Part shown: piece after piece, positions 291-35,923 of the stretch
Position numbering within the stretch: the first letter of the stretch is position 1
Layout: each line of letters opens with the position of its first letter
Assembly (NCBI GenBank): GCA_012295275.1
Contig: CM022669.1
Span: 2,294,001-2,358,000 of the forward strand
DNA length: 64,000 nucleotides
Direction: 5' to 3'
DNA from: Chrysomallon squamiferum
Lineage: Eukaryota > Animalia > Mollusca
The notes under the pieces: model-generated
Seen by the model: only the letters and a program-made list of their open reading frames with translations
Database searches by the model: none
Told to the model about the DNA's origin: nothing
Made by a program: the position numbers and the translations under genes

Positions 291-1570
291 CTCTAAATCA
301 GCCTCTGCTGATTTTGGACCAAAGCCACCAAAATAATAGATACGTTTATCAATAACAGCACACTGCAGTTTGTCTCTCGAACTGGGCTTTTGACCTTCAC
401 AATTCAATACTGTCCATATTCTGGTATCTGCAGTGTGATATTTAACTTTATGATATAACTATTTTTTTGAGATAAAATAAATATATCCTTTGAAAAAATA
501 TATTTACCACCTGCATCAATATTAATCAAATTTATGCTTGACACTTAATGAAATAGATAGAACAGTTACTATTCATAGAGCAAAATGTAAGATACATATT
601 TTCCCATTTTGTCCCTGGAGTGGAAAACTGCTTATCTTTTACTTTCAATAATAATTAATATATTAATGATTTTTTCTCTTGCTCATTTAATCATAAAATA
701 AACTGTTAAAACTAATAATTAATTCGTGACTTACAGTTACAGTGACTTTAAAATTTAAAAGACATATTGTTTGATTACAATAAAATCAAATAGTAATATA
801 CAAAATAATAAATTTGATTTTAAGAATTCCCAGATGCAGTGCCGATATCACTTATTTAGTTAATAATATTTTTAAATCAAACAATTTAGTATATTCTGTA
901 ATTTGCTGGTTTGAACAGATAACAAACAAATGCTACCTGCATAGTTCAGTACCATTCATTGATTCAATAAAACTCAGATTTAATAGTTCATTATTATTTT
1001 TAATTTTTTTTTAAATTCATTAAACTTAAAGTAACCAATTTTCGTATCTTTTTTCATCGATCATGTGACTAATCTTTATGTATTTAATCACTAAATTACC
1101 TATGTCAAAAACATAGAGATCATCAAACCATCCAAAAGCTTGACTTAATCCTCCAAAAAGGTAAAGTTTGTTTCCTACTGCAGCTAATGCAGCCGCACAT
1201 CGAGGAGGTGGAAGACTTCCCTTCACGGACAATTTTGTCCAAATCTGATTGCTGGCAGCTGTAAAGGGAATTAACAAAAATAATAATAATGTAGAAAATG
1301 AATGCAGTACTGCTAACTTATTAACAAGTTATTATTAATTATTTAATTTCACAGCCTATAGTAATTACCTGGGTCAAACTCAAACAAATCATTTGATTCT
1401 CGCAGATCTTTTCCGTCTTGAGAAACACCGCCGAACACGTAACTTTTGTTATTTAAAGCACAGCTAATGTGCCCCTCGCCACAAGGAAAATCGCAAGAAA
1501 TCTTTTTCCATGTTACGGAAATGTCATTTGGCAGTGATTCTGCAACACTGCTTCTGCTTGCTCCTGCCAT
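291..1570 (-). CDS. Kelch-repeat protein, KLHDC1/KLHDC2-like; first three exons (1570-1369, 1258-1100, 427-291), continues beyond the left edge
   Basis: GT-AG exons join in phase. Three kelch repeats: GEGHISCALNNKSYVFGG, PPPRCAAALAAVGNKLYLFGG...WFDDLYVFD, PSSRDKLQCAVIDKRIYYFGGFGP. Confidence 0.88.
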
Positions 1571-2447
1571 CTTCAGATGAGTATTTTTCCTTGTTTGGAA
1601 TTAATAAACTTTCCCGCAATTTTTCTTTCCTGAAATCTGAAAGGAACGGTGTTTAGATTTTTCTGTTGTTGTAATTTCCTTTGTTTTTGAAGAAGAACAA
1701 AATAAATTCCTTTTCTTTGTTTGAAATTAATTATTATGTGTAAAAATATACAGTTCTAAAGAAACATTATTTACTTAATAATAAATAAAGAAGGCTTTAT
1801 ATCAACAAAGGAATAATATCAAGTTAATGTTTCAACTGAGAATCAAAGGAGGAAATTACATTTTGATATCAATATTTATAGCCTCAATTGCATTTATTTT
1901 CTATATTTTGAAACCGAGACATGTCATGTTAAAAGTGTATTTTAAACCAGACTGAAGACATAAATATATTTAAGAATCACTACTATCGTTTTATCTTCGT
2001 TTTTATAATTCAGATTACGATGTTGGTTTAATTATTGTTTTTATGTTTTATTTATATATTTATTTTCAGTTATTTATATTAACTCATTCTTTTTGTTCAG
2101 TTTATTTTAAACAGTTACTAACTCATAACTGAGTTAGTAGTTACCGAGTTAGTTTTAATATCGTATTTATTAATATTACTGTTGCTCATTTATTGTTAGT
2201 GTTAATTAAAAGCACATGTTTGTATAAAATTAATTTGAAGATTTCTTGGTTATAGACATATTGTTCGACATCGACAAATTGAAAAGAAAAAAACACCCCA
2301 CTTAAAATGACTTATATTAATCATATTGTTTATGATTTATGAATGTTTAGATTATACATGAAGTACTGTGGTAATACTTATGAAGATGTAAAATCCTTAT
2401 GATATATTATATTAATATATTTAATATTTTCATTTTTGTAGATTGTA

Positions 2448-5400
2448 ATGCCGACTGTAATTGCATTAGATGTTTCTCTCTCTATGAGTCGACCAGTTTT
2501 TATTCCAGATTGTTCTGAAGAATATGAACGAAGACACCTAGCTGTGAATGGAATAAATTCATTATTAGATTTTATGACACAGAACTGCAAACTAGAATTT
2601 TTTTCACTGGTAATAATCTTCTGTTATATTTGTTGAAAGGAAATTTTATTGCAAATTCAAAAAGTCAGTAAATAATTTTATCATTTTATGAGTAAATGAA
2701 ATAATGTGTGTGGAATAAATTGTGAATGTTTATCTGCCATATAAGTTAGTGTTGTGAATTATAATTATGTAAGGCTTGTGTGTTTCAAAATTAACATCAG
2801 CATCTAAATAAATTTTATGATGTATTTACCAGCATAAAATTCAGCAGATGCCAAAATGATGCATGTTTTATATTCCTTTTCTGTAGAATCTCCTTGTGTT
2901 ATATAACAGAAATCTTTTTAAAGACAAATTTAAATTTTATCCTAGGAATGTTATTTGTTGTTCTGAAAAAAACATAATTAGACTTGTAGTTGTTGGTGTT
3001 TTTTTCAGGTTGTATTTTCTTATCTTTGGGATCAGCTTGTAACCTTTACAAGAGATTTTGACACAATCAAAGCAGCATTAAATAAAGTTGAAATTTACAA
3101 CAAAACATGTATAGAGTCTGTGTTAGCTGGGATTAAAACTCTGATAGCAGATGAGTGGAGCACTATTACACCAAGCCAGGTATTTTTTGTTTGTATGGCA
3201 TATTATCCCATACTACTACACTGCTAACAAGCATTAATTGTATTAGTCAAATAATAAAATATTGTTTCATACCTCCAAGTAATCATTTGTTTCATTTTAA
3301 AATTTGTCTTTCTGATTATGAATAAAGAACCTAAATAAAGACTTTAAACAGTTAGTTTTTGAAATAATATTTTAAAGTTATTAATAAAATGTGTGCAGGA
3401 CTGAGACTGGCAAAGATATAGTATATTATATGTTGTTTGTTAATAATAATTTTTTTTTTTTATTTAATCTTAATGAGTAACAGTTTTATGTTACAGATTA
3501 TTTTAATAACTGATGGTAATCCAGGTACAGGGGCAGGTTCTTTAAAACAGTCACTAGAGAGAGCAGGAAAATCACCTGAAGAGAAGTTTCCTCTTCCATT
3601 TGCCTTTCCATGCATCCTGAATATTGTGTGTTTAGCAAACCCCAATGATGTTGATCTACAGAATTCGCTCCCCTTGTATCATAAACTTGTTGAACTGAGT
3701 GGTTTTGGTGGAGAGGTTTTTGTTCCTGAGGCATCACTTACTATGAAGTCTGTGCAAGAGATGTTTCTTCGACTTGCAAACAAATATTACACACCTTTTT
3801 ATGGAAACCTAATATGTGGAAATATGAAATGTTCTGTGCAGTTATATCCTTCACCTAACTCTTGTTTACAGTAACTATCATTTTATACAATTTTACTGTT
3901 ACAGAATGTTGTTTTTAAAATAAATAAAAAATGATAAAAATAAACTTTGAAGTAAGACATTTTAAATTATAACTGGATAGTATTTAGGGCCAGATCTTTG
4001 GTTTCAAAAAGAAAGGTTTTCTGTTTCTTGTTTTGAAAGTAATGAGTTTTATGGGCCTCTTATGTAAGATTTGTAGTGAATAAATGAAGTAAGAAAAAAA
4101 GAAAAATGTTAATTTTATAAAACTATTTACTTTTATTTTTTAATATTTAATTTTCCATACAGAAATCCCACAGGGAGTAAACCACTTCTTTCAAACACTT
4201 TGAAAATTTGTGGATTTCTGGATATTGCAGATGTATCTAGCCCACCAACAATATCACGACACCTTGTGCTACCTGTTGGAACAAAGGAAAAAGAAAATGG
4301 TCAGTTTTAATAATTATTTACTTTATTTTTAGCAATATATTTGTCTAACATCATAGAATGTTTGATCAGCATTGTGTTTACACAATACTGAAATTAAGTT
4401 ATTTTTTAATTTATTTTTTTCTAAATGTAAGCTAAAATTCACATTATATACAAATATATTTCTTGTAAAATGTGGGGGAAAATGTGTAAAACTATTTCTA
4501 TTTGTAGAAAATGAACAGAAAGGAATGAAAAATGATGATGCTGATGTAACAGATGATGGTCGTATTCCAGCATTCACAGTGCTTCTACATGGAAGTCTCA
4601 AGGTTGAGAGTATGGTTGCACTTACACAAGTTGGGTGTGTTCTCAATTTGTACAACTGCTTAGTTTCTTCTTCATTAATCAACTTTATAGTCAGTCACTG
4701 TCTTACTCTAATCTTGAAAAATGAAAAAATATTCCCTTTGACTATAAGATGAACATGCTTATAAATATCAGCTGAAAGTTCAAACATTTCCCTTTTGGAC
4801 AAATAATTCAGAAATCTGGGACTTTACTGGATTAGCTTCAGGGAATGGAGGGTGTTGTGGCATAACTTCTCCAAGTTAGCTCTAAGGATGCTACTGTAAT
4901 CTCTGTATCTGTCAGTTTTAAAATCAGTGGTTAACAATATTTATCAGTATCTGTTTATTTCAGAGAAGACTGGTATGGTATTATGTATTCATGGGCTGAC
5001 AGCAAGAAGAAATCTAACCTAATACTCGCTCTGTTTGAGCAAGGTAATTTGTTGTGATATCTGTATCAAATTGACTACTTATTCGTAATCTCATACTTCT
5101 TTTTATTTTTGGTTACCATTCTTAAAAAACAAGTGTTTTTAATAACACTTCTGGAATAAATTCGGGATAAGTCGCAGAAGTTTAGACATTTCTCAAATGT
5201 AGGACATAAGCCTCCCAGGACAAAAGCACCCACAGTCCAAATAACAGCCAGGTGTGGTTTTGTCTACATTTTTGGTTTACATCCATATTTGTTCTGCCTC
5301 TTCACAGTGTAAACGTTTTATAAAATAATTTACTTTAATAAAAGTATCCATTTCCAGTCCTGCCAATAATTACAAAAATGAAATAATATATTTATTGTTT

Positions 5401-7497
5401 GTAGTATACAAACAGCACTAACCTGTTGAAAATAAATTACTTCTTAGGTCTTGATACTTTATCCTGGCTTGGAAATTTTGATAACCTGGCATCCATGTCT
5501 GAATTTAATGAATCGCCATATGGAGAAGATGACAGCAAAACTCCATTTCCAGTAAGACCAGCAGAAAAACACAGTTATGCGCAGAGTTGTGTAGTCTGGA
5601 TAAAACCATCTGGGCTTCAGGTTTGTTTCTAAAGATTTTTTCTGTATTTCACACTCCTTGACATGATTCAGATCAAATCAAACATATTTATTATTAAAAG
5701 TAAAAACTATAAAGATCCAAAAGAATATAGATGTATATATATATATAATTTTCAAATAGTTGATAAGATTATATATTATCAATAAAAAATGAAATAAAAA
5801 AGATATGAATTTAAGGTCATCTTTTCATTAAGTCGAATCTAGAGTTTTAAATTTTTCCTTAAAAGAAATGTTACAGAATACAGTGGTACCTTGACTTATG
5901 AGTTTAATTTGTTCTTTGACTGACATCTTAACTCAGTTTGCTCGTATATCAAACCAGCTTTCCCAACTGAAATTAATTGAAATACCATTAATCCGTTAAA
6001 ACCCATAAAAACCACCCCATTTCTATTTGTAACGTGTTTTTAAATTAAAAAAATGTATTCATAAACTATTGTATAAAAATCAAATAAAACAGAATGTAAA
6101 GAAATATAAAGTATATTTATCTTGGACATCAGACACATTATTTTAATGCCTTATTTTAGCTGGAGTTATAGCCTTTATCGATTCCTGCTTCAGTATGGGT
6201 ACATAACGTTTCAACTGCCTAGCCAAGTTGACTACATGCTCATTTCTTTCTGTAATTTCATGCTTTAATTCAATGGACATCACCCGCTTCTTCTTCTCAG
6301 CACTGTCCTTTGCACTCACTTTCTTAGGATCAATGGTCAGAAAAAAGAAATTTGGCAAAATATTGTACAAAACATGAGAACAACACAACAGAGATAGTCT
6401 GCGGCAAGGTAACCACATGAAGTAAACGAGTGAGACGTGGGATGCTGGGCAGATTTTCTTTTGTTCATTGCACCAACTAGTGGTGGCATATCTGAAGCTC
6501 GCTCATAACTTGGATTTTGGCTTGCAACTCAAAGCAAAAAATCAACCAGCTTTAACTCAGAAAACTCATAAGTTGGTGCACTCGTAAGTTGAGGTATCAC
6601 TGTATTTCAAATTCAATTTATGTTTAATTGTGTTAACTAATTACTTCCATCAAATTGACAATGTTCTTTAATTAAGGCCCTAATTATTCTTCTCTTTTGA
6701 ATTTCTATTACATAATATTGAGTACTTTTGAAAAAAAATTATTTTCTTTTTTTGTTTCTTTATTTATAAAAGTGTTCTTTAAAATGTCTGTTTGGAATAT
6801 TTTGTTGATGATTGTTTTTGTCTTTATGTTTCCTTCTCATGTTTTTGTTTTAGGCTGACTTGCAAAAAGTGCTAAGACATGCCAGAAAACTTCCTGATAA
6901 ACAGCAACAGTTTTACAAAGTATGGAGCATTGTTTCTTCTTTTAAATATTATTTCTGATATTCAAAAGAAAATATTGTTTTCACTAATAGTATGTACATA
7001 CACATACAGAGACTTAGTGGGAGAGAAAAACAGATATTATTATACATGAACAAATGCATTTATGAAAAAATTTAAATTATTTAGTTAGTCTTTATACATC
7101 TTTCTTCAAATATAATTAGTGTAAAATTACCTTGTGATAAATAATAGTTTTTTTCAAGTGTATATTCCAGATTAAATACAAATACAAATTAACAAAATTT
7201 CCTAGCATCCGTAATGAATTATAACATTAGATCATTCTTACTATCTTACTCCCAACATACTTTCCACAGGAATTGAATAGAATTCGCCGAGCAGCTCTTG
7301 CATTTGGATTCTATGAACTGTTGGAAGCTATGGCAGCCATGTTGGAAAGGGAGTGCACCATGTTACCAGGGACTGCACATCCTAGTGCTGCTATGCAACT
7401 CACTCATGCAGCTAATGCCCTGCGAAGTGACTCAGCCAAAGATGTCACTGTTACTGTCATGCCATTACAGACTAATTTTAGTGGTGAAGATGGTTGA
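2448..7497 (+). CDS. INTS14: Integrator complex subunit 14 (VWA9), about 505 aa; exons 2448-2609, 3009-3179, 3497-3870, 4163-4299, 4508-4634, 4964-5043, 5448-5620, 6854-6919, 7270-7497
   Basis: All nine exons join in frame with GT-AG boundaries. Recognised motifs: MPTVIALDVSLSMSRP, FTVLLHGSLKVE, WADSKKKSNL, SYAQSCVVWIKPSGLQ, FYKELNRIRRAALAFGF. Confidence 0.96.
5881..6602 (-). mobile_element. pogo/Tigger-like internally deleted DNA transposon, copy 1, in INTS14 intron 7
   Basis: TIRs CAGTGGTACCTTGACTTATGAG ... CTCGTAAGTTGAGGTATCACTG with TA on both sides. Remnant ORF PKKVSAKDSAEKKKRVMSIELKHEI resembles the Tigger/CENP-B N-terminal HTH. Confidence 0.9.
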
Positions 7498-8270
7498 ATT
7501 TTATTACTTAAATAGGAAAAAGAGGAAATATTTTCCAAAACCTGGAAATTGGTTCAGTTTTATATAGTAGCATTTTAAAATTGTTTTTCTAAGAAACATG
7601 GTGTGGTTTAACATTTATGTGACAGAATGAAAGACTGATGGGAGCATGATGAAATCTATCTCTTTTTACAAGAATATGATTACAAATTTTTACTTTATAA
7701 TAAATTCCCAATAAATGTTTGAAATTAATTTGTTGCTTAAGTCATAAAATGTTTCATAAGAACATATTCAGTGTTGAAATGTTTGTTTTAATAAAGTTTC
7801 AGATACTACAACAGAACCAAACTAAGAAAGAAAAAAGTAAGTAACTGATTCATAAGAGTTACAAAATAATCTGAGAATAGATTTTATATAGATTGTTATT
7901 CTCAGAGATAGCTGGTAGAAATCTTTTTTTTTTTTTAATTCATAAATTTTCCAGTGTGACAATTGGTTTTATTAATATTATGCTGTAACAATCTCCAGCA
8001 TACATCATTCATACAAGTCTTGAGAGAACTTATCTCATAGACAACAGGATTTGGAATATCATATCCACAGTAATATGCATGCAGTAGATTTAAAAAAACA
8101 TAACAAAAAGAAATGTTTCACTTGGATTTATTTAAAGCATCATATCAAATATTAATAAATGTAAACAATCTTTGTAAATATTCTAAAAATAAAAAATATC
8201 AGTCACAACTTCATAAATATTTGAAACTAAATTCTTATATAAAATTACTATATTAGTTTCACAGCAACAG

Positions 8271-8477
8271 AAAAACATGCATTGTTGAATGTCATTTGAT
8301 TATTAAGTAGCATAAATTTCTCTTATGATAATATCACAACACCTTAAATAAATATATAAAATAAACAGTTTCATTTTTGAAAAACATGCTTTGTGGAATG
8401 TTATTTGATTTTTAAGTAGTATAAATTTCTCAATACAATAATATCACATCTAAAATAATAAATATATAAAACAAACA
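8271..8477. repeat. Degenerate tandem duplication of about 109 bp
   Basis: AAAACATGC...GAATG...TAAGTAG.ATAAATTTCTC...ATAATATCAC...AAATATATAAAA occurs at both 8271-8367 and 8380-8477. Confidence 0.7.
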
Positions 8478-8951
8478 TTGTTTCTTTCACATCTCTGTCT
8501 TAACTGACCGTAACAAGAAAACTTTGAAAATAAATATAAAAAATATAATTCACTGTGCTAATCAAAACCACACTATTTAGTATTTACAATAAAAAAAATA
8601 TTGTAAAAAGTATATATGGCTAATATTTATTTGGAAAAAAGCTGTGGCTAATAATTTTATGACAGCAGAGATTGCTTTTTAGATGATTTGTGCTATTTTA
8701 AGGAGTACATTTCATCAGCAAAAGCATATCAGTATATATGTCTAAAATAATTTATTTGATATATCAAGATGTGACAAATTTAACTACTTGTATTTTTCAT
8801 ACTGACATTTCTATACATTTTTCTTGATGACTTTTATTTATATTTAAATTTTCAATGTCAAAGTTGTACTTCTTTTAATATCGGACAAGTTTCTTAATAG
8901 ACTGGTATCACCAAGAATACAATGATAGGCCATATTTGATATTTAAAATCA

Positions 8952-9314
8952 TCATCTTTTAATGTTCAGTTCTGACAAATCACCACAGCTCATAACCTTC
9001 CTGATGGCATATTCTGACTCATATGTATCACCAATTGTTTGCAATGTTTTTCCACAAGTATTGCAGAGATACTTGTCTCCCATCAGTCGCAAGAGTTGAC
9101 CACAAACTCTGTGAATGTGAGCACTGTGGGGTCTTTCTGCTAGTCTTATATGTGGAGTGCTTAAACTCAGCCTGGCTGACGGTTCTGGTGTTATGATCTT
9201 ATGGGCTGTTGACATGGATACTTCAGTTGCTGGTATGGTTTCAGTGGTAACAGATTGTTCGGCTGTACTGTCTTTTTTTACCTCATCTGATTTTGGATCT
9301 GTTTTGCACCCCAT
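8952..9314 (-). CDS. Putative BH3-only protein (120 aa) with two tandem NOXA-like BH3 motifs
   Basis: Uninterrupted ORF from ATG 9314 (MGCKTDPK) to TGA, richer in GC than its flanks. Disordered S/T/E/P N-half, then VCGQLLRLMGDKYL and TCGKTLQTIGDTYE. A donor GTGAGT at 9838 suggests a non-coding first exon. Confidence 0.68.
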   Translation of the reverse strand: MGCKTDPKSDEVKKDSTAEQSVTTETIPATEVSMSTAHKIITPEPSARLSLSTPHIRLAERPHSAHIHRVCGQLLRLMGDKYLCNTCGKTLQTIGDTYESEYAIRKVMSCGDLSELNIKR

Positions 9315-9839
9315 TATTATGAACCTTTTCAAAGTTTATAAATAATAATAATAATATTAATATACTATTAAAATATAATTATTACAACATGAAAATTATA
9401 TTAGAAGTAATAATTTATTAATTATTTATTACTATCAGTTCAAGTAGTAATTTAATAATTCAGTACTGATGTGTGGTAATATAGTTCCGCTTTCGTTTAG
9501 GATAACATATATATTAAAAAGTAAAAAATAAAAATAAAAATACTCATCTTTAAGAACTTGAAAGTTTTATAAATGTCAATTTTAATTAAATAATCTTGTA
9601 AACACTAAAACAGTAAACTGTAAAGCCCCCGTGTACGAGTATTACATATTATACATAATATAAACTGAATAATAAATCACCAATATGAATATCGGAATAA
9701 CTAACAGAATATGTATTACTAATAGTAATATTACTATTAGTATTACTATTTATACATAATATTGGAAAATTTAATGCTCATACAAATTAACTAATTAAAT
9801 CAGTAATCTCAAACAAAAATGGATAAACGTTTACTCACA

Positions 9840-10422
9840 ATTAATTTAATTATTAAAAATATTTTGTTCAGTTCTAAACTACTGGCTACTCTCATAAATG
9901 GGGAATCCTCTACGAGTATAATGTATCTATCATAATCTAAATATGGAACATACTAACCGACATCGGTAGCAATCTACGCTCGAGTAATTATGAATTTCAG
10001 GATATGATGGAGTACTAGTCGATATCGTTTGTCAATTAATATCTTGAGGGTTACACAACTAGATTTATATAAAGTTTCTAACGTAATACGTTAGGTAATT
10101 AGTCTATCTTTTTATTAACTTATAAAATTCCGCCTGTGAATTTTTTTTTTTTTTTTTCTGCTATGGAATTAATTCCGATGTAACTGGTTGACAACAATTA
10201 ATGTTTATTAAGATGTAGTATCGATCGAAATTTAGAGACTACAATATTAAAAAAAATAATTTTATGACGTTTAACATGTATAAAGAATTGGCCAATCCTG
10301 TTTCACATTTTGATCATGTGGTATGACGTGTACCGGGAACAAATAATGCTATCTTGTTGTCCTATTCGGCCATTTTGAATAAGTTTTGTGGGAGAGTTTG
10401 GGGGGTAATATATACTTTAAAT
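9840..10422. promoter_or_regulatory. Probable bidirectional promoter between the BH3-motif gene and the MCL1-like gene
   Basis: CpG-containing interval between divergent ORFs. kB-like GGGGAATCCT at 9900, CCAAT at about 10291, CRE half-sites TGACGT at about 10265 and 10324. Motif matches only. Confidence 0.5.
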
Positions 10423-12981
10423 ATGGCAGGAGAGCCACATATGATGATTGATTCTTCAACAAACTTATCTGTGAATTACCGTAACAATATTTTCAAAGAA
10501 TTTACGAATTTTCTGCCTGTTTCAAAAGGGTTAAACGATATCGCTGGGTTCACAAATGAATCGAATAATTCGACTAGTGTATCTGGATCTCCGCTTGAAG
10601 CAGTCGGACGAGAGGCTGAAATTATTGCTTCAGATGTTATTATAAGTTTTACAACGGAAGACAACAGAAAACCACCAAACAAATACTGCAAAACCATGAG
10701 AAGAACTGTAAAAGAATTATTAGAACGACACAACATAGTGTTCAAGGGAATGGTCATGAAATTGAATGTTGAAGAAAGCAATGCTTTCCAAACATTCGTG
10801 AATATCGCAGATGAAATTTTCGATGATGGACAGATAAACTGGGGTAGAATTGTTGCTGTGTATGCCTTTGCTGTTCGTTTAGCTAAGCACTGTCAAGATA
10901 AAGAAAAAACTAACTTTCCACAAAGAATCTCCTTGTATGTTGGAAAATATGTTGGAAATAAATTGGGAAGCTGGATCCTGGACAATGGAGGATGGGTATG
11001 TATCTTTGCATGTTTTATTATGTTTATATTAACTTTTTGTCATCTACATCTCATCATTGTTAAATTGCCAGAGATGACAGTGATACAATATACTAGTATA
11101 CTCATCATACTGTATCCAAGCTTAATACTGTTATGATTATACTGTATAAACATTTAATATTAGTTACCTGATTGTTTAATCAGTTGATCTCAACATAAAC
11201 TAAACAGTTTGTACTATAGAGACACAAATTGAAGATATATACATGTACTGGATACCTTGGCGCCTGAGGCATTCCGGATTTCTGGATTTTCCGGTTTTCT
11301 GGTTCACCAAGGCATCTAAATACGTAAATAATTAGGCATAAACATTTTAAAATTAAAAACAAAGAAAACTGATGAGATACAACTGTGGCGACTTGACATG
11401 TAAACAATGCGGCGAGTGAATGAATGCCACACGGCTTGAAAGAGTAATTCTGGTCTGGTGAGGACAACACCTCCACATGCAAACTATGAAAATAGCATCT
11501 GGGGAAAAACTTCCGGATTTCCAGATGATGGATAATTGGTCTGGTACCTGTACTACAGCTTTTATAGAGCAAAAAAAAAAAAAATACTCCATATACTCCA
11601 TATATTCATTGGGTGAAAAATAACAACAAAACTTGTTAACAAATTTGAGAGCTTACTTGATACTTAAGCAACGAATGATTGCCATGCTAAAGGTATGTTT
11701 AATACTAGAGGATCTGGAGAATGCAAATTAGAACTAATGTTAACCTGGAATATTTTTATATGCAGCTGCTTTGATGCCATTCTCCAAAAGCCATAAAACT
11801 GATTCGAAATCCTGATTTTCTAAAAGCTACCATCATCAGATATCGCTGCATTGCTGCAGCAATTACATCCCTACAAAAGTATTCTAAAGAAATCTGGTAT
11901 TGCTGTATGTGAAATGATAAAAGCCATCATGCAAAAGCCATTTATTTGGTCATACCTTATTAGACAAATGCTGCAAATGAACAGTTCTTAACACACATAT
12001 GAGTTGGGTGCAGAGAATATAAATGTGACCAGATGGGTTTTTTCATTCCAGCTTCTGGGAAAAGGAAAACCCTTGACAATCTTTGAAAAGATGCCACTTG
12101 TATTCAGTACACCATTTCTGTAGATTCTGTGGACTCCTATTTCAGAAATGGTTACATTGCCCAAATGCACAACTCCTACTGGTAACCAGGAAGATAACAT
12201 AACTATGTATAGCAAAAGAGGGTGTGTGTGTGTGTAAAACCTCTTAACAAAATCATGTGTAAATAAATTAACCTATATTGATTTATGTCATGACCAGCAA
12301 GTATACCTATTTGCTGTTTATTATTTTCTTTGGACCAGTGAATTTCCAGCCTCCCCAGTCAATAGTAAAGTCGGAAGGGCGAGAGAGAGAGAAATGCCTA
12401 ATGTATGATCAGAAAATCTTTATTAAAAAGAAAGAAAAAAGCAGCTATTCCTAACCTATCATTAAGTGTAAAATGATCAGAAGAGCTGATTGAATCTGCA
12501 TCCAGATGATATGTTTTCCAAGTTTGCTGTCATATAAAAAAGTATTTACATAGTAATTAAAATAGATTTGTTGCTTGATATAAACGTGTAACTTAATATC
12601 ACTTGAAATTCCCTAATTGTAGATTAAACCTACAGCATAGTCTCGAATAGTCAGATACTTTGCTTTTACTTAATTTATACTTACTTTTTGAACGTGCAGG
12701 CACAAATAAGTATGTGCAGGTTTCCAACTCATTTTTGTGACATAATTTATACTTTTGAATTTCAAAAATTATATTGTTGTTGTTTATACATCAAGGAATC
12801 AAAAAGAAAAGAAGAAAAACCCACTTATTTTTGTTCTTTATTTTATTTTTTTTATTTTTTTCAGGAGGCATTTGCTGAACATTTTCCTGATCAAGGTGAA
12901 TTTGAAGATAAGGTGTGGAAAGGACTTCTCTTCACAGCAGTTGGACTTGGTGCATTAGCTACAGTAGTAGCAGCAAGATAG
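10423..12981 (+). CDS. Bcl-2 family pro-survival protein, MCL1-like, about 229 aa; exons 10423-10995 and 12865-12981
   Basis: BH1 FDDGQINWGRIV and BH2 WILDNGGW|EAF split by the family-typical phase-0 intron. KTMRRTVKELLERHNIVFKGMVMKLNV resembles MCL1 helices 2-3. C-terminal TM GLLFTAVGLGALATVVAAR. Confidence 0.93.
11248..11550. mobile_element. Possible degenerate MITE in the MCL1-like intron
   Basis: GC-richer island flanked by TA, with repeated TTCCGGATTT motifs near both ends and only weak terminal complementarity. Confidence 0.35.
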
Positions 12982-16962: not shown

Positions 16963-18004
16963 TTGTAAGCTGTTTGCAATAATTTCATCTTGTAAGCTAA
17001 TAGAAGTATGTAAAATGAAAAATATTTATATTTTATTTATGATAGAAATCCATTTGTTTTAATGACACATCATATATAAATATTTTAGATTCTGACAAGC
17101 TTTTGGTTTTTATACATATATTGGGGAGTTTGGTACATACACTCATTCAGAAACTAAATCATTCTGCTGCTAATTATAGATATCGCTGTAGTCTGTTATA
17201 TGTTATAGATCTCTCTTTTATTGTGAACAGTGTTCAGACAGGCCTGAAAAGCCTGCGAAAGGTGAATGTGTTTTTTGTTTAATTAATGTTGTTGGCTTTG
17301 TGCATTCTTTTAAAAACTGTACATAATATTTAACAACGGTGTGGTTCCTGTACTGATCGTCTTTTTACCGTTTCGGTATGAGTAAGCTAAATGGATTTCC
17401 AGCCTAACACGGAAGTTTTTTTTTTCTTTTTCTTTCGTTTCCCCGGATTTAATTTTAAATGTACGAATAAAACAGAAAATTTGTTTCACTGGCGGTATTT
17501 TATGGAGCTATAAATATATAATAAACAATAACAAATTCAGAAACTAAATGTTTTCAAAGAACGGAAACTGGGAAATCAGTCTCAAAATTCATTGGTAAAG
17601 GAAAATATAAATAGACGATGTAAATAATTCTTATATCTATATATAAAGGGTTCATCAGTATAACATATATTCATTTTTATTTGAACAAATATTACATCAA
17701 GTGATTTACGACACGCAGGAATATAAGCGGCGTTTGTAATTCCAGTTGTTAACCTAATTTCTATGCTCTTACAGTAAAACATCAGTCGAGCGAAACACGT
17801 AAACAAATTACGTTCGGTTAAAGCCAGCATAAAAAAAAAATCAGTATGTTTTAATGTGAGCAGATTCAACGTTGTTACTCTTTTATTTACCTCTAACAGT
17901 ACAGATAATCAGTGACAGTCACGTCTATTGACCCTTACCACACGACTAACTTGCCAAACAAGAAATAGATACAGCCTGAAACTCCAGTATTGAATGAGAC
18001 CAAC

Positions 18005-19146
18005 ATGTCTGACAGGCAACGGATAAATTACGACTGGACGGTTCTTATTGCTGAAGATACCATAACCAGTTATGCTGATAGAACAAGTACCACAACGTCG
18101 ACTTTGAGATTTGCCAGATCGAGTAAATACTGCAGAGTGATGAGACAAAATGTCAAAAAATTGCTGGAAAGGCACAAAATTGTTTTTAATTCAATGGTAA
18201 GGAACCTGGACATCTGTGAAAAAAATGTGTGTGTGACTTTTGTCCAAGTAGCGGACGTTGTTTTTGAGGATGGGGTGACAAACTGGGGAAGGATTCTAAC
18301 AATATACGCATTTGCTACTCGTCTGGCAATGGCGTGTAATAGTAGTGAAAGTAAACTACTTGACACTATTGCCACTGACACAGGGAAATACATCTGGCAA
18401 AAACATGGAACATGGATTTTACAACACGGTGGATGGGTAAGCGATCAATTTAATTATTATTTTTATTGTTTACAACCTTGTGCTCAACCTTCATCTTTTA
18501 TTTTTTATCTTTTTTAAATATATATACAGGGTGTCCGTAAAGTTACTTGTAATAAAGAAATATGGTTAGATTAAAACAAATTTCAGAAAATATTTTAACA
18601 ATATAAGCAATCAATTTTATTTACTACAGTTTGGAATGAATATACCTATTTTATAGACTTGTTTTTAGTATGCGTATTTAATAGAGTTGTTTTCAGCTGA
18701 AATGTTTAGTAACTTTATGGACACCCTATAGGCCTATATATTACAATTACAGTTTAAATAATCTCAGGCCATCTGTTCAGTTCAGGTGAGCTAAAACCAA
18801 AACATTTCATTATTTCTAAAGCAAATAATGATAACTGAAGTACATATATCACACATTTTAGTATGAAGGTAATATTTCAGAAGTGATTAACCATTAAAAA
18901 GGAGTTCAAATATTTTTTACTTTACATGACATCTTTCTTGTACTCCATTCAAGTTAATAATATTATTTGTGTATGCGAGTAATTATATATATAAAAATGA
19001 TAATAATGAAAATAATATTTTATTTCCAGGATGCTTTTGTTGAAGCCTTTGATGACACAGATACAGTCGAAAAAGGTATCTGGAGAGGACTTCTTTTTAC
19101 TGCCATTGGTCTTGGAGCTATGGCAACTGTTTTGGCAGTCAGATGA
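18005..19146 (+). CDS. Second MCL1-like Bcl-2 family paralog, about 182 aa; exons 18005-18436 and 19030-19146
   Basis: BH1 VFEDGVTNWGRIL, BH2 WILQHGGW|DAF with the same intron position, and an exon 2 of the same coding length (117 nt). TM GLLFTAIGLGAMATVLAVR. The start Met is uncertain. Confidence 0.92.
18527..18728. mobile_element. Tc1/mariner-type MITE of about 200 bp in the paralog intron
   Basis: TIRs CAGGGTGTCCGTAAAGTTACT ... AGTAACTTTATGGACACCCTA, flanked by TA. Confidence 0.85.
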
Positions 19147-20824: not shown

Positions 20825-21666
20825 GTATTATAATTATTAAGAATTGTATTATAAAGTTAATAAAATACGAGCTATTTTTTGCACATGATTCTATTTAGGT
20901 TACAGAATTAGAATGATCTCTAATATTATTTTATGTTAACGTGAAAGATGTAATGGATGTTGCATAAATAAATTCATAAATAAAATAAATTTTGTTGTTT
21001 AATGTTGTTGCTTTGGGTTTTATTTTATTATTTTTATTTATTTATTTAGTATTATTTTTTGTTGTTGTTGTTAAAACAGACGCTCAATTGTATCATTTAT
21101 AATCATGCCGAATAATACTGGGTAATTTTAAAATATACATTTGCAAAACTGTATTTTGTACGCTCAGTTAATTTTTTCTTCTGATTTTTATTTTTCTATT
21201 TAATCTTTCTTTCTTTCTTTTCTTGAGAACATTACAAGAAAATATTATTCAAATTTTAATTTAATCTGTTAACAAGATTGTTGACATTCATTTTATGTAC
21301 AAAACCCACAAATGAATGCTGGGAACGTGCGTATGAACATTAAAACAAGCGTTGATCTAGTTGATTCAGTTTTGCTATCAGTACAATACGCCTCATTTGA
21401 AAGGACCCATAACTTCGGTTAAAAATAGAGTAAATTAATTTTATTTTTTATTATTCACATTATTTTTTTATTTTACATTTCCAGAACCTTTACGTTGGGT
21501 TTACATTTTACAAAACGACTAAATGTAGTTTTTAGTTCGACGGAAACGCTGAACAATCTGCCTCTCCCATCAGGCAATTATTATATTTACGGTTAAGCTA
21601 TGACTGAAACCCTGTAATTTTACGAGCTTCTACAAATATTTAACAGTCAGAAGAAATCTCGAGAAA

Positions 21667-24600
21667 ATGATGATAAACATGCAAGTGAATGAAATGACTT
21701 GGGCCAAAAAATGGAATTCTGAAATGTCAAACTCTAAGAATTGGACTATTGGTGAATCAGTCCCAAACTATCCACCAGTGAAAAGGACTCCGTCAAAAGT
21801 GAGAATAATTAAATATTTAATAATAAAAGACATATATTTGAAAGTATTTACAATGAATCGATTTATCCACCTAACATTCTAATTTTTATATTTTAAATTT
21901 ACTAACAATGTAATTACTGATTATTTAAACATAATTTAATGCTAACTTAATATTAACAGATACAGGCACAGTTTATTTTTGTGAATTATCGTCAGCCACT
22001 TAGTGACTTAACAAGTACAGATATTCATGCATTCACATAAATACAAAAACTTATTAATCATCCAAAGGTGATTTTCTACCAACAAGTAAATTTCTATTTA
22101 TCTTTCAATTTTATTTCAGTTTATGTAAATCATCAAATAATCAAAAATAGCTGAATGTTTTTATTTTGTAGAAATCTATGGATATGGAAACTGGATACAA
22201 GCTTATTAATATCATGGATCAAAATACAAAAGAAATAAAACAAAAACAACCAGAACCCAAGAGTAATAGAAATGTAATATAAATAACAAAATTTAGCATA
22301 TACTGAAAAATCAACACTTTAAGATTCAAATTAATATATGTAGATGCAGTTATATGCTGATTAAATAAGAAATTGTGATTTCTAAGTTTTCAGCATTTTG
22401 TTAGCAAGACATTAAAGGTTTGTTAATATTATTAAAGTTTGTAACTGAAAGCAGGATATATTTTATGCATGTGTAAATAAGTTCTAGGCCTAAATGTAGA
22501 TTAGTAATGAAATTAATATTTATATCTACATCTTGTGAAAATGGGATATATAATTAAGTGATTTAAATCAATTAATATGAGATACTGTTTTGTTTGATTG
22601 TTGTTTTTTTTTTTTTTTTTTTTTTTGTAAAGTTTTATTTTAATCTCCATTAAGTTGTTATTACTTGTAATTACTGTGCAGTCCTTTCTAAGTGAAGACA
22701 TTAGGAGAGGTCTGGAATTTCGTGAAGCTTATGACAAAGAATTCCAAGAGAGACGGGCATGGCTTGACCAAGTAAAGAAAGAGAATGACGTTATAATGGA
22801 AATAGTTCTCAAGTCAGTGTGAAAAAGAAATATATCATTGCGGTTAAATTAAATTTAATCATATCATAGAAGAAAAACTTAAGCTTAACTGATAACAAGA
22901 TGTAATTTAATCAAATAGTGACAAGTGTTGAAAATGCACCTTTTTTTAACCTGACATTCCATTTAAAATGGAACAATTTTTGAATCAATTATGAACCACA
23001 ATGACTTATTCCTCAACCCATTAGATAATTTCTTTAAACATGTAGTAATAGTCAAATTGGGGGTGTGAAAAGAAGTATTTTAATGTTGGCACTTGTTAGA
23101 GTAAATCACTGGTTCTACCTGGTGCAAAGAAAAGTATCTAAGGAGACAGTAAAGTTTTCTGATTCTCTTATTTTCATTCAGTGTGTATTGTAAATAAAAA
23201 AATATTTACTGTTTTATGAGATGGTTGGAATAATATTGTGGGTGGTGGAAATGAAAAAGGTAAATGTGCTGGTATCAAAATAACTGTCAAAACTTAGAAA
23301 TGTTATTTATGTTCTCACACTTGACACTATCACAATATCCTTTTATCATTCACATAAAATTTCATGACAAAAATCAGGAAAGTAACAAATAAAATTTAAA
23401 CTATAAATAAATGTAAACATTTTATATTTAAAAATGTGTGTTATATGTTTATGAAACCATCATCAAAAATAAATGTTTGATATATTTGTTAATTATTTAT
23501 TATTAACATTTTTCTTTTCTCTTCTTTATCTTCCTTCTTTTTTTTTTTCTTTTTTTTCTTTTTGACATTTTATAATAAAAAATAAAATTAAAATATTAAA
23601 AATTAAGCTCTCAAAAGGAAACTTTTAATGCAAAAGAAAGAACAAATTTCTATATAAATAGTCACAAATCAGACTCAGGGTCTGTCAAGCAGCTGAGTGA
23701 AACAAAAAGAAGTAATGACTCGGCTGATGTCAGAAATGCCAGTGACACCAACAGGAGCCAAGCCTCCTTTCTGGCTGATCGACTTAAGGAGCTCACTGAA
23801 GTAAAACTGAGCAAGGACACACCTGAAACCATATACAGCAAGGAGGCACTGGAAGACAGACACAAAGGCACATCTGACTGTAGCAGAAAGAGGAACAAAT
23901 CTGAACTAAATCGAAGAGAACATCCATATCATGGCAAACGAAATATGTCTGACTCTATGTTGAAACAGATTTCAATGCTTTTTGAACAACGACTTGCTAA
24001 TCTGCTGGCAGGAGGTATATTCATTTATGTTTATCAAGTTTTAGACTGTAAAAGTATTTGTTTTTTTAAATTCCATATAGTGAAAATTTATTGATTTTCC
24101 TGCAATTAGAGAGAGAGAAAAAAAGTTGTTTTCTAACTACATGAATTTGTTGGGTTTTGGGGGTTTTTTTTGTCATCAATTTAATTAAAATTCTATTTTC
24201 AGATCTTCTTATTTAAAATTTTTGTTTTACTTTAGACAATGAAGATGAATATCAGAAAGAAAATGAAGAGCCCAAACAAAACAAATGTGAAAACACTACA
24301 TCTTTAAAATGGAATTCACCAAATTTCAAAATTAAAGTGTGCTATTCAAATTAACATTGTTACCTCAACTGAATGACAAAATTTATTGTCATTATATTTT
24401 ACAGCTCTGTAGATACTTTCAGTTAATTCACATGCTAATAATATAGTTTCCTCTAATGACTGACTAGATTATCTACATATATCTGTTATTGGACAGAATG
24501 AAAATATTGATAGAAAAAAAAAAAAAAAAAAATGTATATACACACACATATACATATCAGTATATTTACATCATAAAAAGTTGGTGCTTTGAATAGAATA

Positions 24601-25043
24601 TTTAAATTAATTGATTTAATACATATTTTATGTATTTAAATATTTAGAATTATAGATTTTATTTATATCTACAAACTGATTTGGAGGCTACCCAAAACAT
24701 TTTATTTACAACATTATTTAAAGATTTTAGCACAGATTTCTTTTATTATTATGTTAAATAAATATAAGTATTTATTTATTGATAAAGAAAAACTTTTTTC
24801 TTATTTATTAAACTATATTACTTATTTTGATGTTTATATGGTATTATTAATAAAATTAACCTATATTTATATGAATAATTAGTTTGTTTTTATTTATATG
24901 AACAGTTTCTATAATAAATAATTTGATAATTAACACTCATCATAAAACTGTCCAAAATCAGGATGGGTTAAATAAATTATTGTTCCCAGCTATGCAGCAA
25001 TAGGATGATAATTAAAGAACATAGAACTTTTCCTCTGTCGTAA
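21667..25043 (+). CDS. Uncharacterised hydrophilic protein, about 290 aa; exons 21667-21798, 22172-22273, 22682-22812, 23662-24014, 24236-24336, 24990-25043 (alternatively ends at TAA 24354)
   Basis: Six GT-AG exons join in consistent phases with no stops, including an open 353-nt exon. No family recognised. Confidence 0.72.
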
Positions 25044-25265
25044 GAGAGAAAGACCGAAACAAATAAAAATAAAGAGAAAAAGCAGTGTGGATATCTGTAG
25101 ACAAATGCGGACTTGTAATATTTAAATGTCTGTTAAAAATCGGTCTCCTAATATTGGATGTAATACAATATTTAAAAAAATATATATTTTGTTTTAAATT
25201 TTATTTAGCCGATACTACCTTCGTTTTTCCTTGCATAAACTGGAAACAAACAAACAAACAAACAA

Positions 25266-25304
<39 letters not shown>

Positions 25305-25652
25305 ATTGACCAAGGATGCACATCTAATAATTATAACACTACGACACTTTTCATTCATATCAACTTTAGAAAAACATTGTTTTTGAATGTCTGATCAATA
25401 AACAGTTATTTTACTGAGTAAGTCCTCGTCTTAACAAAGAATTTTGAATACTTCAAAGCGGATCACAAATGATAAAGTTATCATTTCCTGTTATACGTAT
25501 AGCATTAACGTATTGTTTGCTTCTGGTCATTTAGTTAATCATATAACGCGTTGCGGTCTAAGGGAAATAACTCTAAATAATAAATATTTCGCACTTGACA
25601 ACAGAATTCATTAGACATGCAGATAATAAAACAGTTTTATTAAAACTTTGGA

Positions 25653-27616
25653 ATGGCAGAAGCCACAGGTAATTCAGTAAATAAAATAAAGTTTAAATGA
25701 TCTTCTAGCCCCACTCTTTTTATTTCTTTTCAGTTAACACTATTTGTTTTTAAATTGTGTCCTACTGTACGTAATACTATATGGCTACGTAGTAGCTATA
25801 GTACTAATATTGCAATCCCATTTCGTACAGAAATACTATGTCAGTGTGATGTAGGATGTCGTTCATTCATTACAGTTATATTGATTTTTTTTATCACCAG
25901 ATTAAAATGTAAAACAAATGTGACTAATCTCATTTTTGAAATACTACTGTTTCACTAATTCACATTTCAGTGGTATTACAGCTAATGCTTCTATGAGTAC
26001 TAATACTGCGGTGACTACTATTGCATATATTAACGTGTGTTTTTTTTCTGCAACGATTGCTTAACTATTATTTAAATTCTAAATACTGATTAACAAATAT
26101 ATGTAGATTTTACTTTTAACTTTTACTTAAAAAACAATAATAATAATAATAATAATAATAGTAATAATTATTTATGTTAAAAAGATTTATAATTTAAAGA
26201 TAGCATATTTTTAATTTCAGATGGGAAAATCAACAAACAGCTTCTGAAAACAAGAAGTGGCGAGTTTGATGTTGAGAGCATACATTCACTTTGTCTCCGC
26301 GAAGCTGGTATAACATTGTTTACTATATTATATATATTTGTATCACAGGTATTAGAGGACTTATATATGTTCAAATTATAGGTATATGCGCGCGCACACA
26401 CACACACCACACACACACACACACACAGTGGTAACTCAAGTTATGAGTACTCCAACTTATGAGTTTTCTGAGTTATGAGCAGTGCTGAGAAGAAGATGCA
26501 GATGATGTCCATTCAGTTAAAGTGTGAAATCATAGAAAAAAATGAGTGAGATGTGTGTATAGTCAACATGGCTAGGCAGTATGAGCGTAGTACTTTTACA
26601 ATATGTACCATATTGAAGCAGAAGGCGTCGATAAAGGCTTAACTCCAGTCAAAGGCATTAAAATAATTTCTAAGCTGTGGATCTCTGTCCATGAAAAGAT
26701 GGAGAAACCATAACCCTGTACACTTTACAAAACCAATTCAGTTCTTTACATTCTCTTTTATTTTGTTTTTATACAATATATATCATTTATACATATATTT
26801 TTCTTATTTAAAAACGCGTTACAAAAAATTGGGGTGGTTTTTTGGGGGCTCAAATGGATTAATTTTATTTCAATTAATTTCATTTGGAAAATTCATTTGA
26901 AATATAACCAAATTGAGTTACGAGCTGAGTCACAAAATGAATGAAACTCGTAAGTCAAGGTACCACTGTATATATATATATATATATATATATATTTAAA
27001 TTACAGGTATATATATTTAAATTACAGGTATAGATGACTTGGGCTGTATCAGTGAATGTCTGAGTTTAGAACGTCTTGATCTGTCTAGAAACAGGATTGC
27101 CAAACTTCACAAACTTGCAGGTCTCATCAATCTGCACACATTAAACCTTTCAGGAAATATACTCACCTCCCTAGGTTTGTAATACATATTTAGTGATTTC
27201 TTGAGGTTTGTAATAAATTTTTAGTGATTTTACAGGTTTGTAATATATTTAGTGATTTTACTAGGTTTGTAATATACATATGTAGTGAGCTGTTTTTTGG
27301 TTTGTGACATATATTTAGTTTTGTAATATACATTTACTGCTTTTTCTAGGTTTGTAATATACATGTAGTAATATATATTTAATGATTTTGTTTTCTTTTT
27401 TCAGTTTTTAACATTCATAGTGATTTTTCTAGGTTTTTAACATTTATAGTTATTTGTCTAAGTTTTTTACAGTGTTAAAATCCTATTCTAAGTTTGTAAC
27501 ATGTATTTATTGTTCCTTTTTCTTTCATATTTAGTTGATCTTGTAACAGTTTGTTAAAAATTCAAAAAACTTTAAACATAAACAATTCTTATGCAGGAAA
27601 AACATTACATGAAAAG

Positions 27617-27649
<33 letters not shown>

Positions 27650-28244
27650 AGATGATCGAAAAGAGAAACACTTTTTATATTTTGTAATAAATTTTATCTA
27701 CAGAGGGATTACAGGCTCTGGATAATCTGAGAATCTTAAATTTGGCAGGAAACATTATAGGAAGGTTTGTTATTTAATATAAATAAACAGTTAAAGTAAA
27801 TGAAAATTATTAATTTGAATAGATTTTGGGTTTTTTGTTATTGGGTATTTTTAATAAAAGGTTATGATTAAATAACATTTGTAATGCTATTTTATAAGAT
27901 ACTTGTATACATATTGGTATATTTCTTTTTAAAAGTAAAACTTTTAAACCATTTTTTTAAAACATAAAAACACTACATGTGAAGTTATTTTTCTTTTCAT
28001 CTTAATCTGTTTGATATGTACACTATGAGTGGAATGAGATGTTTGTTTTATTTCAGTTTTGACAGTCTGCTATGTCTGACCGGGTTGGAGTATTTGAAGG
28101 ATCTGCGACTTAAAGATACAATTCACAACTTGTCAAATCCAGTCTGTCATAATCTCAACTACCAAACTGAAATTCTTGACATGTTTCCACATCTTCATAT
28201 TCTAGATGGTAAAACTCTTAAGCTTTTAAAAAAAAAGAACTTCC

Positions 28245-28289
<45 letters not shown>

Positions 28290-29837
28290 CAGTTATCAGG
28301 AACATGTACAAAAGAATTAAACTGGTATTTTGTCTTCTCTAACTGCAGATGTATGTCATCTTCAACAAGTACAATGCTGCAGAATTCTTGCAGCATTTTT
28401 TTATTTATTAAGAACCTATGCATTATACATAGTTATTGCCATCTTTTCTTGATTATACTATTAATAACCAATAATTAGTTGTAATTAATTAATCCCTTTC
28501 AGATGCATCTTCATAAATGTGAATATTTTTTAAATTATTATTTTTTTTTTAAAGGGGAGAGGTTAAGAGGAAAGGGCAGTGAACTCTATGAAATGTGTCG
28601 GGAACTGGACAGAGCTCTAGAAGGTTAGCAGTTCTGTGTGAAAACACTGACAATCTCCAGGAACAGTAAACAGTTTTAGTTGCTGAATTTATGTCCAGTA
28701 ACAGTAAATAATTTTTAACAACTGAAATTACGTAAACTAACTGTAAGTCATTATGACCGTCAATGTATTTAAATATATTTTTGTATTTTGTTACAAAAAA
28801 TATTTTTATTGACAACTCCTCTAGATGATTTTTTCTTGTCAGTGTATATAAATATATGTGTTTGTTTGTTATACAATATTTTCATTGACAGCTCCTCTTG
28901 ATGATATCTGCTGTCAGTGTATATAAATATATGTGTTTGTTTGTTATACAATATTTTCATTGACAGCTCCTCTTGATGATATCTGCTGTCAGTGTATATA
29001 AATATATGTGTTTGTTATAGAAACTATTTTCATTGACAGCTCCTCTTGATGATTCACCTGCTATTGCTCCAGCCACACAATGGTTTTCATCTCAAGTTTT
29101 GTCTCTTCACACACCAAGAAAATTTCAGGAATCAAATCTCTCTGATGCTGAAGATCAACTGAGAAGTAATTGGGTTTTGGGGTTGTTTTTTTTAAAGAAT
29201 AAATCAATTTATTTATAATTTGATAAAACTAAGTAAGATAAATGTTGAGAAAAATTAATAAACTATGTTTAATTATAACTGCATATAGCTACATAAAAAT
29301 AACCAAGCATTATCTTGAACTTGAAATAAAAGCATAGTATATATTTTCCTTAAAATATTTGATAAATGTACTATTTGAAATTCATATGTGACAAACAGCT
29401 TAAAATGCTGCATAAAATTCAATTATATTTTCTGAAGTCTATTTGAGTAAAAACTTTTCATTTCATTCATGACATAGCATTTAGTAAAAATTGTCAAAAA
29501 ATTTCCATTTTCAACAGTTGTCTTTACTATAAATGATGTTATCAATCAAAACTATTATTATTTACAAGGAGGTTTCTTGTTTTGTATTTTGAGCTAAAAT
29601 TTCACTGAAATGGCTAAATCTAGAACTGCTTCTCAGTTTCATATGTTTAGCATCTGATTTAAATTTGGAAAGCAAATATGGTTTTCTAATCTACAAAATG
29701 GATTTTACATTGTATTTGTATGTATATTTACCAAGAGGATTTGTTTTGTGATTGCAGGTCTGCTTGCTGGATGTAAAAGAGTTAGTGCTGAGGCAGATGT
29801 CAAACTGGCACAGTTACAGAAACAGCTTGATTCCTGA
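25653..29837 (+). CDS. LRRC61: Leucine-rich repeat-containing protein 61, about 245 aa; exons 25653-25668, 26221-26307, 27028-27174, 27704-27764, 28057-28208, 28555-28623, 29040-29165, 29758-29837
   Basis: In-frame exons give INKQLLKTRSGEFDVESIHSLCLREAGIDDLGCISECLSLERLDLSRN, further LRRs, and an LRRcap (NPVC...Y...FPHLHILDGERL), matching the LRRC61 pattern. Confidence 0.9.
26426..26968 (+). mobile_element. pogo/Tigger-like element, copy 2, in LRRC61 intron 2
   Basis: TIRs CAGTGGTAACTCAAGTTATGAG ... CTCGTAAGTCAAGGTACCACTG. Internal sequence is homologous to the other copies. Confidence 0.88.
27171..27500 (+). repeat. Degenerate minisatellite of about 30 bp built from the LRRC61 exon 3 donor site
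   Basis: Repeated (CT)AGGTTTGTAATA(C)ATATTTAGTGATTTT units begin at the true donor. Confidence 0.75.
28801..29053 (+). repeat. Tandem repeat of about 75 bp (3+ copies) containing the LRRC61 exon 7 acceptor
   Basis: TTTTCATTGACAGCTCCTCTTGATGAT recurs at about 28880, 28955 and 29027, with a variant lacking AG at about 28803. Confidence 0.9.

Positions 29838-35886: not shown

Positions 35887-35923
<37 letters not shown>

Follow-up and report, generated by a model that had tools for sequence, protein, structure and literature searches.

The window analysed here, a 64,000-nucleotide stretch of Chrysomallon squamiferum DNA, contains on its minus strand a real, transcribed and unannotated mollusc gene that carries two conserved BH3 motifs and lies head-to-head with a gene of the Bcl-2 family. 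The product of this gene, P0001, is 120 amino acids (aa) long and the surrounding genes and intervals are as follows.

7270 to 7644, plus strand: last exon of INTS14, tail-to-tail with the open reading frame (ORF)
8952 to 9314, minus strand: coding sequence of P0001, 120 aa in a single exon, residues 1-60 predicted to be disordered
9501 to 10500, either strand: CpG-retaining interval between the divergent genes (CpG o/e 1.28 and 1.17), a putative shared promoter
10423 to 10995, plus strand: coding exon 1 of a Bcl-2 gene, probably of the MCL1/NR13 class (Pfam Bcl-2, E 2.6e-28), head-to-head with the ORF
12865 to 12981, plus strand: coding exon 2 of the same Bcl-2 gene, with a hydrophobic C-terminal tail (whole protein 229 aa)
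18005 to 19146, plus strand: second, tandem Bcl-2 paralog (exons 18005-18436 and 19030-19146)

The original prediction had described a 120-aa ORF with a disordered N-terminal half followed by two BH3-pattern motifs 16 residues apart, and both the translation of P0001 and a six-frame scan of the window agree with the motifs and their spacing. The elements within the protein are listed from the N-terminal side.

9120 to 9134, minus strand: R-P-x-S-A motif directly N-terminal of the first BH3 motif, a candidate phosphorylation site
9069 to 9104, minus strand: BH3 motif 1, CGQLLRLMGDKY, residues 71-82 of the translation
9054 to 9065, minus strand: C84-x-x-C87, the predicted hinge between the two BH3 helices
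9021 to 9056, minus strand: BH3 motif 2, CGKTLQTIGDTY, residues 87-98, the more canonical of the two

The two L-x-x-hydrophobic-G-D-x-hydrophobic cores of P0001 are the only ones in the six frames of the 64 kb. Markov-resampled windows (n = 150) contained a mean of 0.81 cores each with a maximum of 5, none of them had a same-frame pair of cores within 30 codons, and two cores appeared in 0 of 200,000 residue shuffles of P0001. The core pattern used for these counts was chosen after the motifs had been seen, and for this reason family conservation is the stronger test. At the DNA level motif 1 and motif 2 of P0001 are identical at 22 of 36 nt, which fits an old internal duplication, but the amino acids that they share account for it equally. 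The exact P0001 sequence was absent from the protein collection searched, no Pfam family is assigned to it and no usable ESM Atlas match was obtained; these three results, together with the shortness of the ORF, are what speaks for a chance ORF or a non-coding transcript of a bidirectional promoter. Metagenome contigs searched for related loci gave 218 pattern matches and no confirmed relatives, and no second copy of the gene was found in the window.

Five sequencing runs contain the region, four of which are recorded as RNA and come from one study, and contigs from four of the five, the DNA-like run X5 among them, were aligned to 7000-9501. Transcripts are present in all four RNA runs listed, and the following transcript features were assigned.

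8163 to 8951, minus strand: 3' UTR, covered by RNA contigs to 8618/8620 in two runs and to 8163 in a third
9324 to 9326, minus strand: splice acceptor defined by RNA contigs, with its AG at 9326-9325 and the exon starting at 9324
9833 to 9838, minus strand: candidate donor GTGAGT of an upstream non-coding exon, proposed from the sequence only

A 707-nt contig from run X1 covers 8618-9324 and with it the entire ORF. Three RNA contigs, two from X1 and one from X2, cease matching the genome at 9324/9325 and carry 84-188 extra letters unlike the genomic DNA next to the break; a fourth starts at 9324. The break coincides with an AAG| acceptor 10 nt upstream of the ATG, and the repeat mask starts at 9332, 8 nt past it. 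As a control, the last exon of INTS14 shows a like break at 7270, and over the intron of that gene the DNA-like run alone gives cover. X5 had no cover over the ORF, which carries no weight either way since the records are filtered. Contigs of run X4 are confined to the 3' UTR (8163-8938). An AATAAA at 8631-8626 lies near the contig ends at 8618/8620 and 11 ATTTA pentamers occur in 8100-8951. The original prediction had proposed a spliced minus-strand transcript with its donor at 9838 as the first thing to look for in RNA; the ORF is present in the RNA contigs of this one study, so a lack of transcription was not seen, and the contigs establish the acceptor while the donor at 9838 stays a candidate.

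In run X1 two distinct RNA contigs of 139 and 219 nt share one acceptor (9295-9325), and distinct contigs at one acceptor together with a main contig that starts there suggest alternative first exons or donors. If the candidate donor at 9838 is used, exon 1 (9839-9947, minus strand) would contain a short upstream ORF with its ATG at 9933 as well as an out-of-frame ORF, ATG at 9895, that overlaps the main ATG. These candidate upstream ORFs are arranged like those of ATF4 stress-gated translation.

Word-seeded searches yielded P0002 and P0004, and a two-sequence seed profile that included P0002 served as the query for a HMMER search of 1.84 billion representatives. This returned 28 representatives at E ≤ 0.001, P0002 itself among them, which with P0001 make up a family alignment of 29 rows with sequence identities of 21-52% and protein lengths of 77-211 aa. 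The N-terminal halves are unalignable across the family and conservation is confined to the C-terminal half. Both BH3 motifs are found in 29/29 members, 16 residues apart in 28 and 15 apart in one. Eight columns and no others are invariant in all 29, namely G72, L75, R76, G79, D80, G88, G95 and D96, and they are BH3 positions (the small residue that follows h1, the Leu at h2 and the G-D); in addition L91 is kept in 27. The h4 position of motif 2 is L, I, M or Y throughout, and that of motif 1 is polar (Q/H) in 6/29. RPxSA precedes motif 1 in 18 members.

The conservation check attached to the original prediction set Leu and Gly-Asp against the Cys and His residues, and in the 29 rows it is LxxxGD that the homologs retain. 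C84 is present in 21 members, C87 in 25, the complete CxxC in 21 and C71, which differed already within the seed, in 14, while H66, H68 and C110, all of them in the seed, are found in 11, 7 and 3 members respectively. The decay of these other seed-shared residues (H66, H68, C84 and C110) indicates that the invariance of the BH3 positions is not mere search bias. A chance ORF is refuted by the HMMER family and its invariant columns, and the spliced transcript and the conserved adjacency to a Bcl-2 gene described below count against it likewise; its probability is very small.

None of the 29 members contains a Pfam Bcl-2 domain and none a transmembrane segment (maximum 19-residue hydropathy 1.19). 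The family has these sequence and predicted structural features of BH3-only proteins: BH3 motifs, no Bcl-2 fold, BH1, BH2 or BH4 (the model has two or three helices and nothing else), and predicted disorder outside the BH3 region. We looked up 18 of the 28 family clusters and four of these carry a species name, all of them gastropods (Lottia gigantea, Patella caerulea, Elysia crispata and Lymnaea stagnalis). The named members are annotated as 'hypothetical' or 'unnamed', and the automatic UniRef label of the Lymnaea member reads 'Yippee domain-containing'.

That label raises the question as to whether the gene might instead encode a small zinc-binding protein, in which H68-x2-C71-G and C84-x2-C87-G would form a zinc ribbon or a C2H2-like knuckle and the likeness to BH3 would be incidental. 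Single-sequence PDB and Pfam matches of the ORF are indeed zinc fingers and ribbons (ZBTB17, E 0.0079) and the CxxC is fairly widespread in the family. Each of the four presumed ligands varies, however, as the counts above show; the four members without both C84 and C87 retain both G-D motifs, the His pair of a C2H2 finger is absent after the CxxC, and AlphaFold gives helices and no ribbon. On the non-conserved ligands and the predicted helices we reject the idea that the protein acts primarily as a zinc finger and hold this explanation to be very improbable, and zinc or redox control may be a lineage-specific add-on.

The AlphaFold model built on the 29-row alignment consists of coil over residues 1-62 and of helices at 63-81 and 85-109, with a helix break at the CxxC (82-84). 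Its pLDDT is about 95 over residues 71-100 and 37-61 over residues 1-60, and the disordered N-terminal half anticipated by the original prediction is without secondary structure in both AlphaFold models, each of which has low confidence there. Foldseek gave no matches to the model at E ≤ 0.001, and a fold search found generic helical matches only (best Z 7.0). Complex predictions run without alignments on residues 50-191 of the Bcl-2 neighbour and residues 58-120 of the ORF scored 0.07 and 0.03 against a mark of 0.34, and are read as giving no verdict. On a straight helix 16 residues correspond to 24 A and 160 degrees, a geometry that would permit two bound proteins and is only suggestive because of the predicted break at 82-84.

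The ATG of the BH3 gene lies 1,109 nt from that of the divergent Bcl-2 gene at 10423. CpG o/e over the ORF body is 0.25-0.36, close to the window median of 0.27, and 8.6% of 500-bp bins reach 1.0, as do those between the two genes; this suggests a single promoter region free of methylation next to a gene body that is methylated. The interval contains overlapping CCAAT boxes on both strands at about 10287-10296 and TGACGT at 10265 and 10324. A simple scan for p53 consensus elements (≤3 mismatches) found none in 8901-11100 vs 12 in the window.

For the neighbour, 90 homologs were listed, as cluster representatives out of 162 candidates; every species named among them is a mollusc, and the closest cluster (77%) includes a Gigantopelta protein. 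The NCBI names of the homologs include NR13-like, MCL1-like and A1-like, with many 'bcl-2-like 1/2'. The groove region of the neighbour matches MCL1 (E 0.03-0.13) slightly better than BCL-XL (E ≥ 0.34), and an MCL1 clade exists in molluscs according to the available text of a published survey (PMC11463336). We consider the neighbour to be probably of the MCL1/A1/NR13 class, an assignment that is not firm because Hydra Bcl-2-like 4 and BCL-XL/BCL-2 rank first when the whole domain is searched, with no MCL1 among the 60 matches listed. The two Bcl-2 paralogs of the window are 45% identical over 133 aa. Their own BH3 segments (10654-10720 and 18060-18160, plus strand) are degenerate and have no G-D (KTMRRTVKEL and RVMRQNVKKL), and for this reason they cannot serve as BH3 donors. 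Upstream of the second paralog lies a separate CpG-retaining region at 17001-18000 (o/e 0.97-1.14), and no copy of the BH3 gene precedes this paralog; the Bcl-2 duplication left the BH3 partner behind.

The same two genes are found next to each other in two other gastropods. In Lottia gigantea LOTGIDRAFT_234736 (Bcl-2) and LOTGIDRAFT_234737 (the BH3 gene) are both on a scaffold of 1,755,219 nt, and in Patella caerulea the pair is formed by SNE40_012162 and SNE40_012163 on a sequence of 48,777,860 nt. The synteny with an MCL1-like gene that had been proposed for relatives is therefore seen in both of the two species in which it could be tested, as an adjacency read from locus-tag number and scaffold and not covering orientation.

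Elsewhere in the window a kelch-repeat gene (1026-1600, minus strand) and INTS14 (2982-7644, plus strand) form another divergent pair around the CpG-retaining bin 2001-2500. Human INTS14 presumably lies on chromosome 15 between BCL2L10 and BCL2A1, which points to a possible ancient linkage. A leucine-rich-repeat gene has its exons in 21604-28342 on the plus strand (LRR_9, E 1.7e-4 at 27983-28342). On the minus strand an acidic low-complexity frame is open for 575 codons (36483-38210) and is followed downstream by an exon with a hydrophobic segment (33500-33778), with no Pfam match in 33500-38210. Imperfect tandem repeats at 56550-57704, likewise without a Pfam match, leave several frames open on both strands and are Thr/Ile-rich on the plus strand. 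Fragments at 6143-6502, 35034-35453, 39151-39498 and 51120-51440 have similar short peptide stretches in common and are probably decayed copies of a DNA transposon.

The original prediction went further and called the gene NOXA-like. Much of this stands, namely an unannotated gene with two conserved BH3 motifs and an MCL1-class neighbour, and the part that does not is the NOXA-specific likeness of motif 1, which had been seen in its Cys and in 'GDK'. C71 is the residue kept in 14/29 and K81 occurs in 1/29, so that 'GDK' is a peculiarity of this species, and we rejected both as evidence for NOXA on the grounds that neither is conserved in the family. It is motif 2 that has NOXA-type residues in most members: its h1 is Cys in 25/29 and its Leu is followed by Arg in 22/29, while its G-D is followed by Lys in 0/29. 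The BH3 of human NOXA is CATQLRRFGDKL, with the same Cys and L-R, and MCL1 is its selective target in the available text of PMC9171138.

These residues, and the linkage to a gene of the class which NOXA selectively targets, would fit a true NOXA (PMAIP1) ortholog, descended from an ancestral head-to-head mcl1-noxa pair that was kept in molluscs and split in vertebrates. To our knowledge human PMAIP1 and MCL1 are unlinked. Three of the 29 members match Pfam PMAIP1, always on motif 2 (11.6-16.9 bits, best E 0.0057), P0001 not being one of them, and PMAIP1 thereby ties as the commonest Pfam family. Against this, the cut-off of the model is 27 bits, the unrelated DUF7129 matches as many members, and Bcl-2_BAD matches one (E 0.13). 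The PMAIP1 model is built on vertebrates, and distant orthologs could therefore miss its cut-off. In the PDB the family profile found six sequences at E ≤ 10, of which two are unrelated and four are BH3 segments of BAX or BAK; the top matches, peptides of BAX (E 0.25) and BAK (E 0.34), align on motif 2 and there is no NOXA among the six. Neither a four-sequence profile nor P0116 alone retrieved a BH3 from the PDB, and every match of the family to a known BH3 falls below significance. A 2022 survey, as far as its available text goes, has Noxa-like sequences only from fish (PMC8998228), and all four named homologs of our gene are gastropods. A cnidarian BH3-only gene called 'peji' is reportedly located beside mcl-1 and has been proposed as a relative of NOXA, which would favour the ancestry; it was not found in the literature searched, which largely lacks subscription journals. 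Were that report true the present finding would be less novel, and NOXA ancestry would become likelier if it also covered molluscs. On balance we think descent from NOXA possible and somewhat less probable than a separate origin. The question concerns ancestry only and is compatible with a BH3-only sensitiser.

As a protein the product resembles NOXA in being small, disordered and without a transmembrane helix, in the h1 Cys and L-R of motif 2 with its weak PMAIP1 matches, and in a tie to the MCL1 class that is functional for NOXA and genomic here. It differs in length, at 120 aa (77-211 in the family) vs a 54-position Pfam model, in its two BH3 motifs 16 residues apart, and in that no p53 element was found in the scanned interval. 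Mouse Noxa also has two BH3 motifs, more widely spaced and due to a rodent duplication. Motif 2 shares with the BH3 of BAX and BAK (2xa0_C, 4d2l_B) the G after h1, the L, the I-G-D-hydrophobic and a downstream R, although the family has no Bcl-2 fold, BH1/BH2 or membrane anchor and these matches reach only E 0.25-1.6. BAD, which has phospho-regulated sites near its BH3, has an R-x-x-S-type motif shortly before it as does our family (RPxSA), and differs in its single BH3. BAD does not bind MCL1 in the available text of PMC9171138. C. elegans EGL-1 and CED-13, schistosome sjC, the Hydra BH3-only proteins and the echinoderm candidates are, by their description in the accessible part of PMC8998228, likewise disordered, with a BH3 in one exon, and missed by homology search; in that comparison by description none of them is molluscan, tandem-BH3 or mcl1-linked.

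Taken together, we predict that the gene probably encodes a conserved molluscan pro-apoptotic BH3-only protein acting as a death sensitiser, and with a good deal more assurance that it encodes a BH3 ligand of one sign or the other, pro- or anti-death. BH3 patterns are degenerate and poor predictors when taken alone (PMC9171138, available text). The likeliest target would be the head-to-head MCL1-class protein, making the two a candidate ligand-receptor pair. The protostome BCL-2-class proteins tested in PMC8282340 did not bind human NOXA, in so far as its available text covers them; the receptor of a NOXA-type motif would then have to come from the MCL1 class, and if that class is the target it is plausible that the protein acts on it as NOXA does on MCL1. 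Both divergent genes would be driven from the shared CpG-retaining interval. The disordered protein would fold upon binding, and its BH3 helix would use h1-h4 and the Asp to dock in the MCL1-class groove. Motif 2, whose h1-h4 positions are hydrophobic in almost every member, would be the main ligand, and motif 1 would either bind as a second one or confer specificity. Occupation of the groove would free effectors of the BAK/BAX type and lead to mitochondrial permeabilisation, a step documented in oyster, and the RPxSA site and CxxC hinge may tune this activity.

BH3 ligands can also stabilise MCL1 or have roles outside cell death. The protein could accordingly be a pro-survival or turnover adaptor that binds the MCL1-like protein or BAK and stabilises or bridges them in place of killing. 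A shared promoter would co-produce killer and guard, as would be fitting for a buffer or stabiliser, every RNA run listed contains transcripts, and the fixed 16-residue spacing suits bridging. Disordered proteins that carry a canonical BH3 are for the most part pro-apoptotic, and motif 2 most resembles the death motifs of BAX and BAK, both of which count against an adaptor. Non-death uses of BH3 are known, such as that of HUWE1 (PMC9171138, available text), and we regard an adaptor as unlikely. Somewhat less doubtful, and still well short of probable, is a bivalent ligand of new architecture, in which two BH3 helices 16 residues apart around the cysteine hinge would grip two Bcl-2 proteins, for example an MCL1-like guard and BAK, the killer and guard being paired on a bidirectional promoter and the ancestral mcl1-noxa locus kept.

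The death-sensitiser reading bears on a stated gap in molluscan apoptosis. In its available text a 2017 oyster study reported no BH3-only protein in C. gigas or Mollusca and took this as divergence of molluscan apoptosis (PMC5550854), and later surveys, in the parts available, omitted BH3-only proteins or missed them by homology (PMC11463336, PMC8998228). The literature searched, which did not extend to supplementary gene tables that could list them, contained no later report of a molluscan BH3-only protein or of this family. The gene is a candidate for the missing molluscan BH3-only trigger, with its probable target adjacent, and it makes the upstream trigger of molluscan mitochondrial apoptosis testable with two short peptides. 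A double BH3 of fixed spacing, if true, would be a new binding mode. Synteny anchored on mcl1 offers a route to BH3-only genes, and to the origin of NOXA, where sequence search fails.
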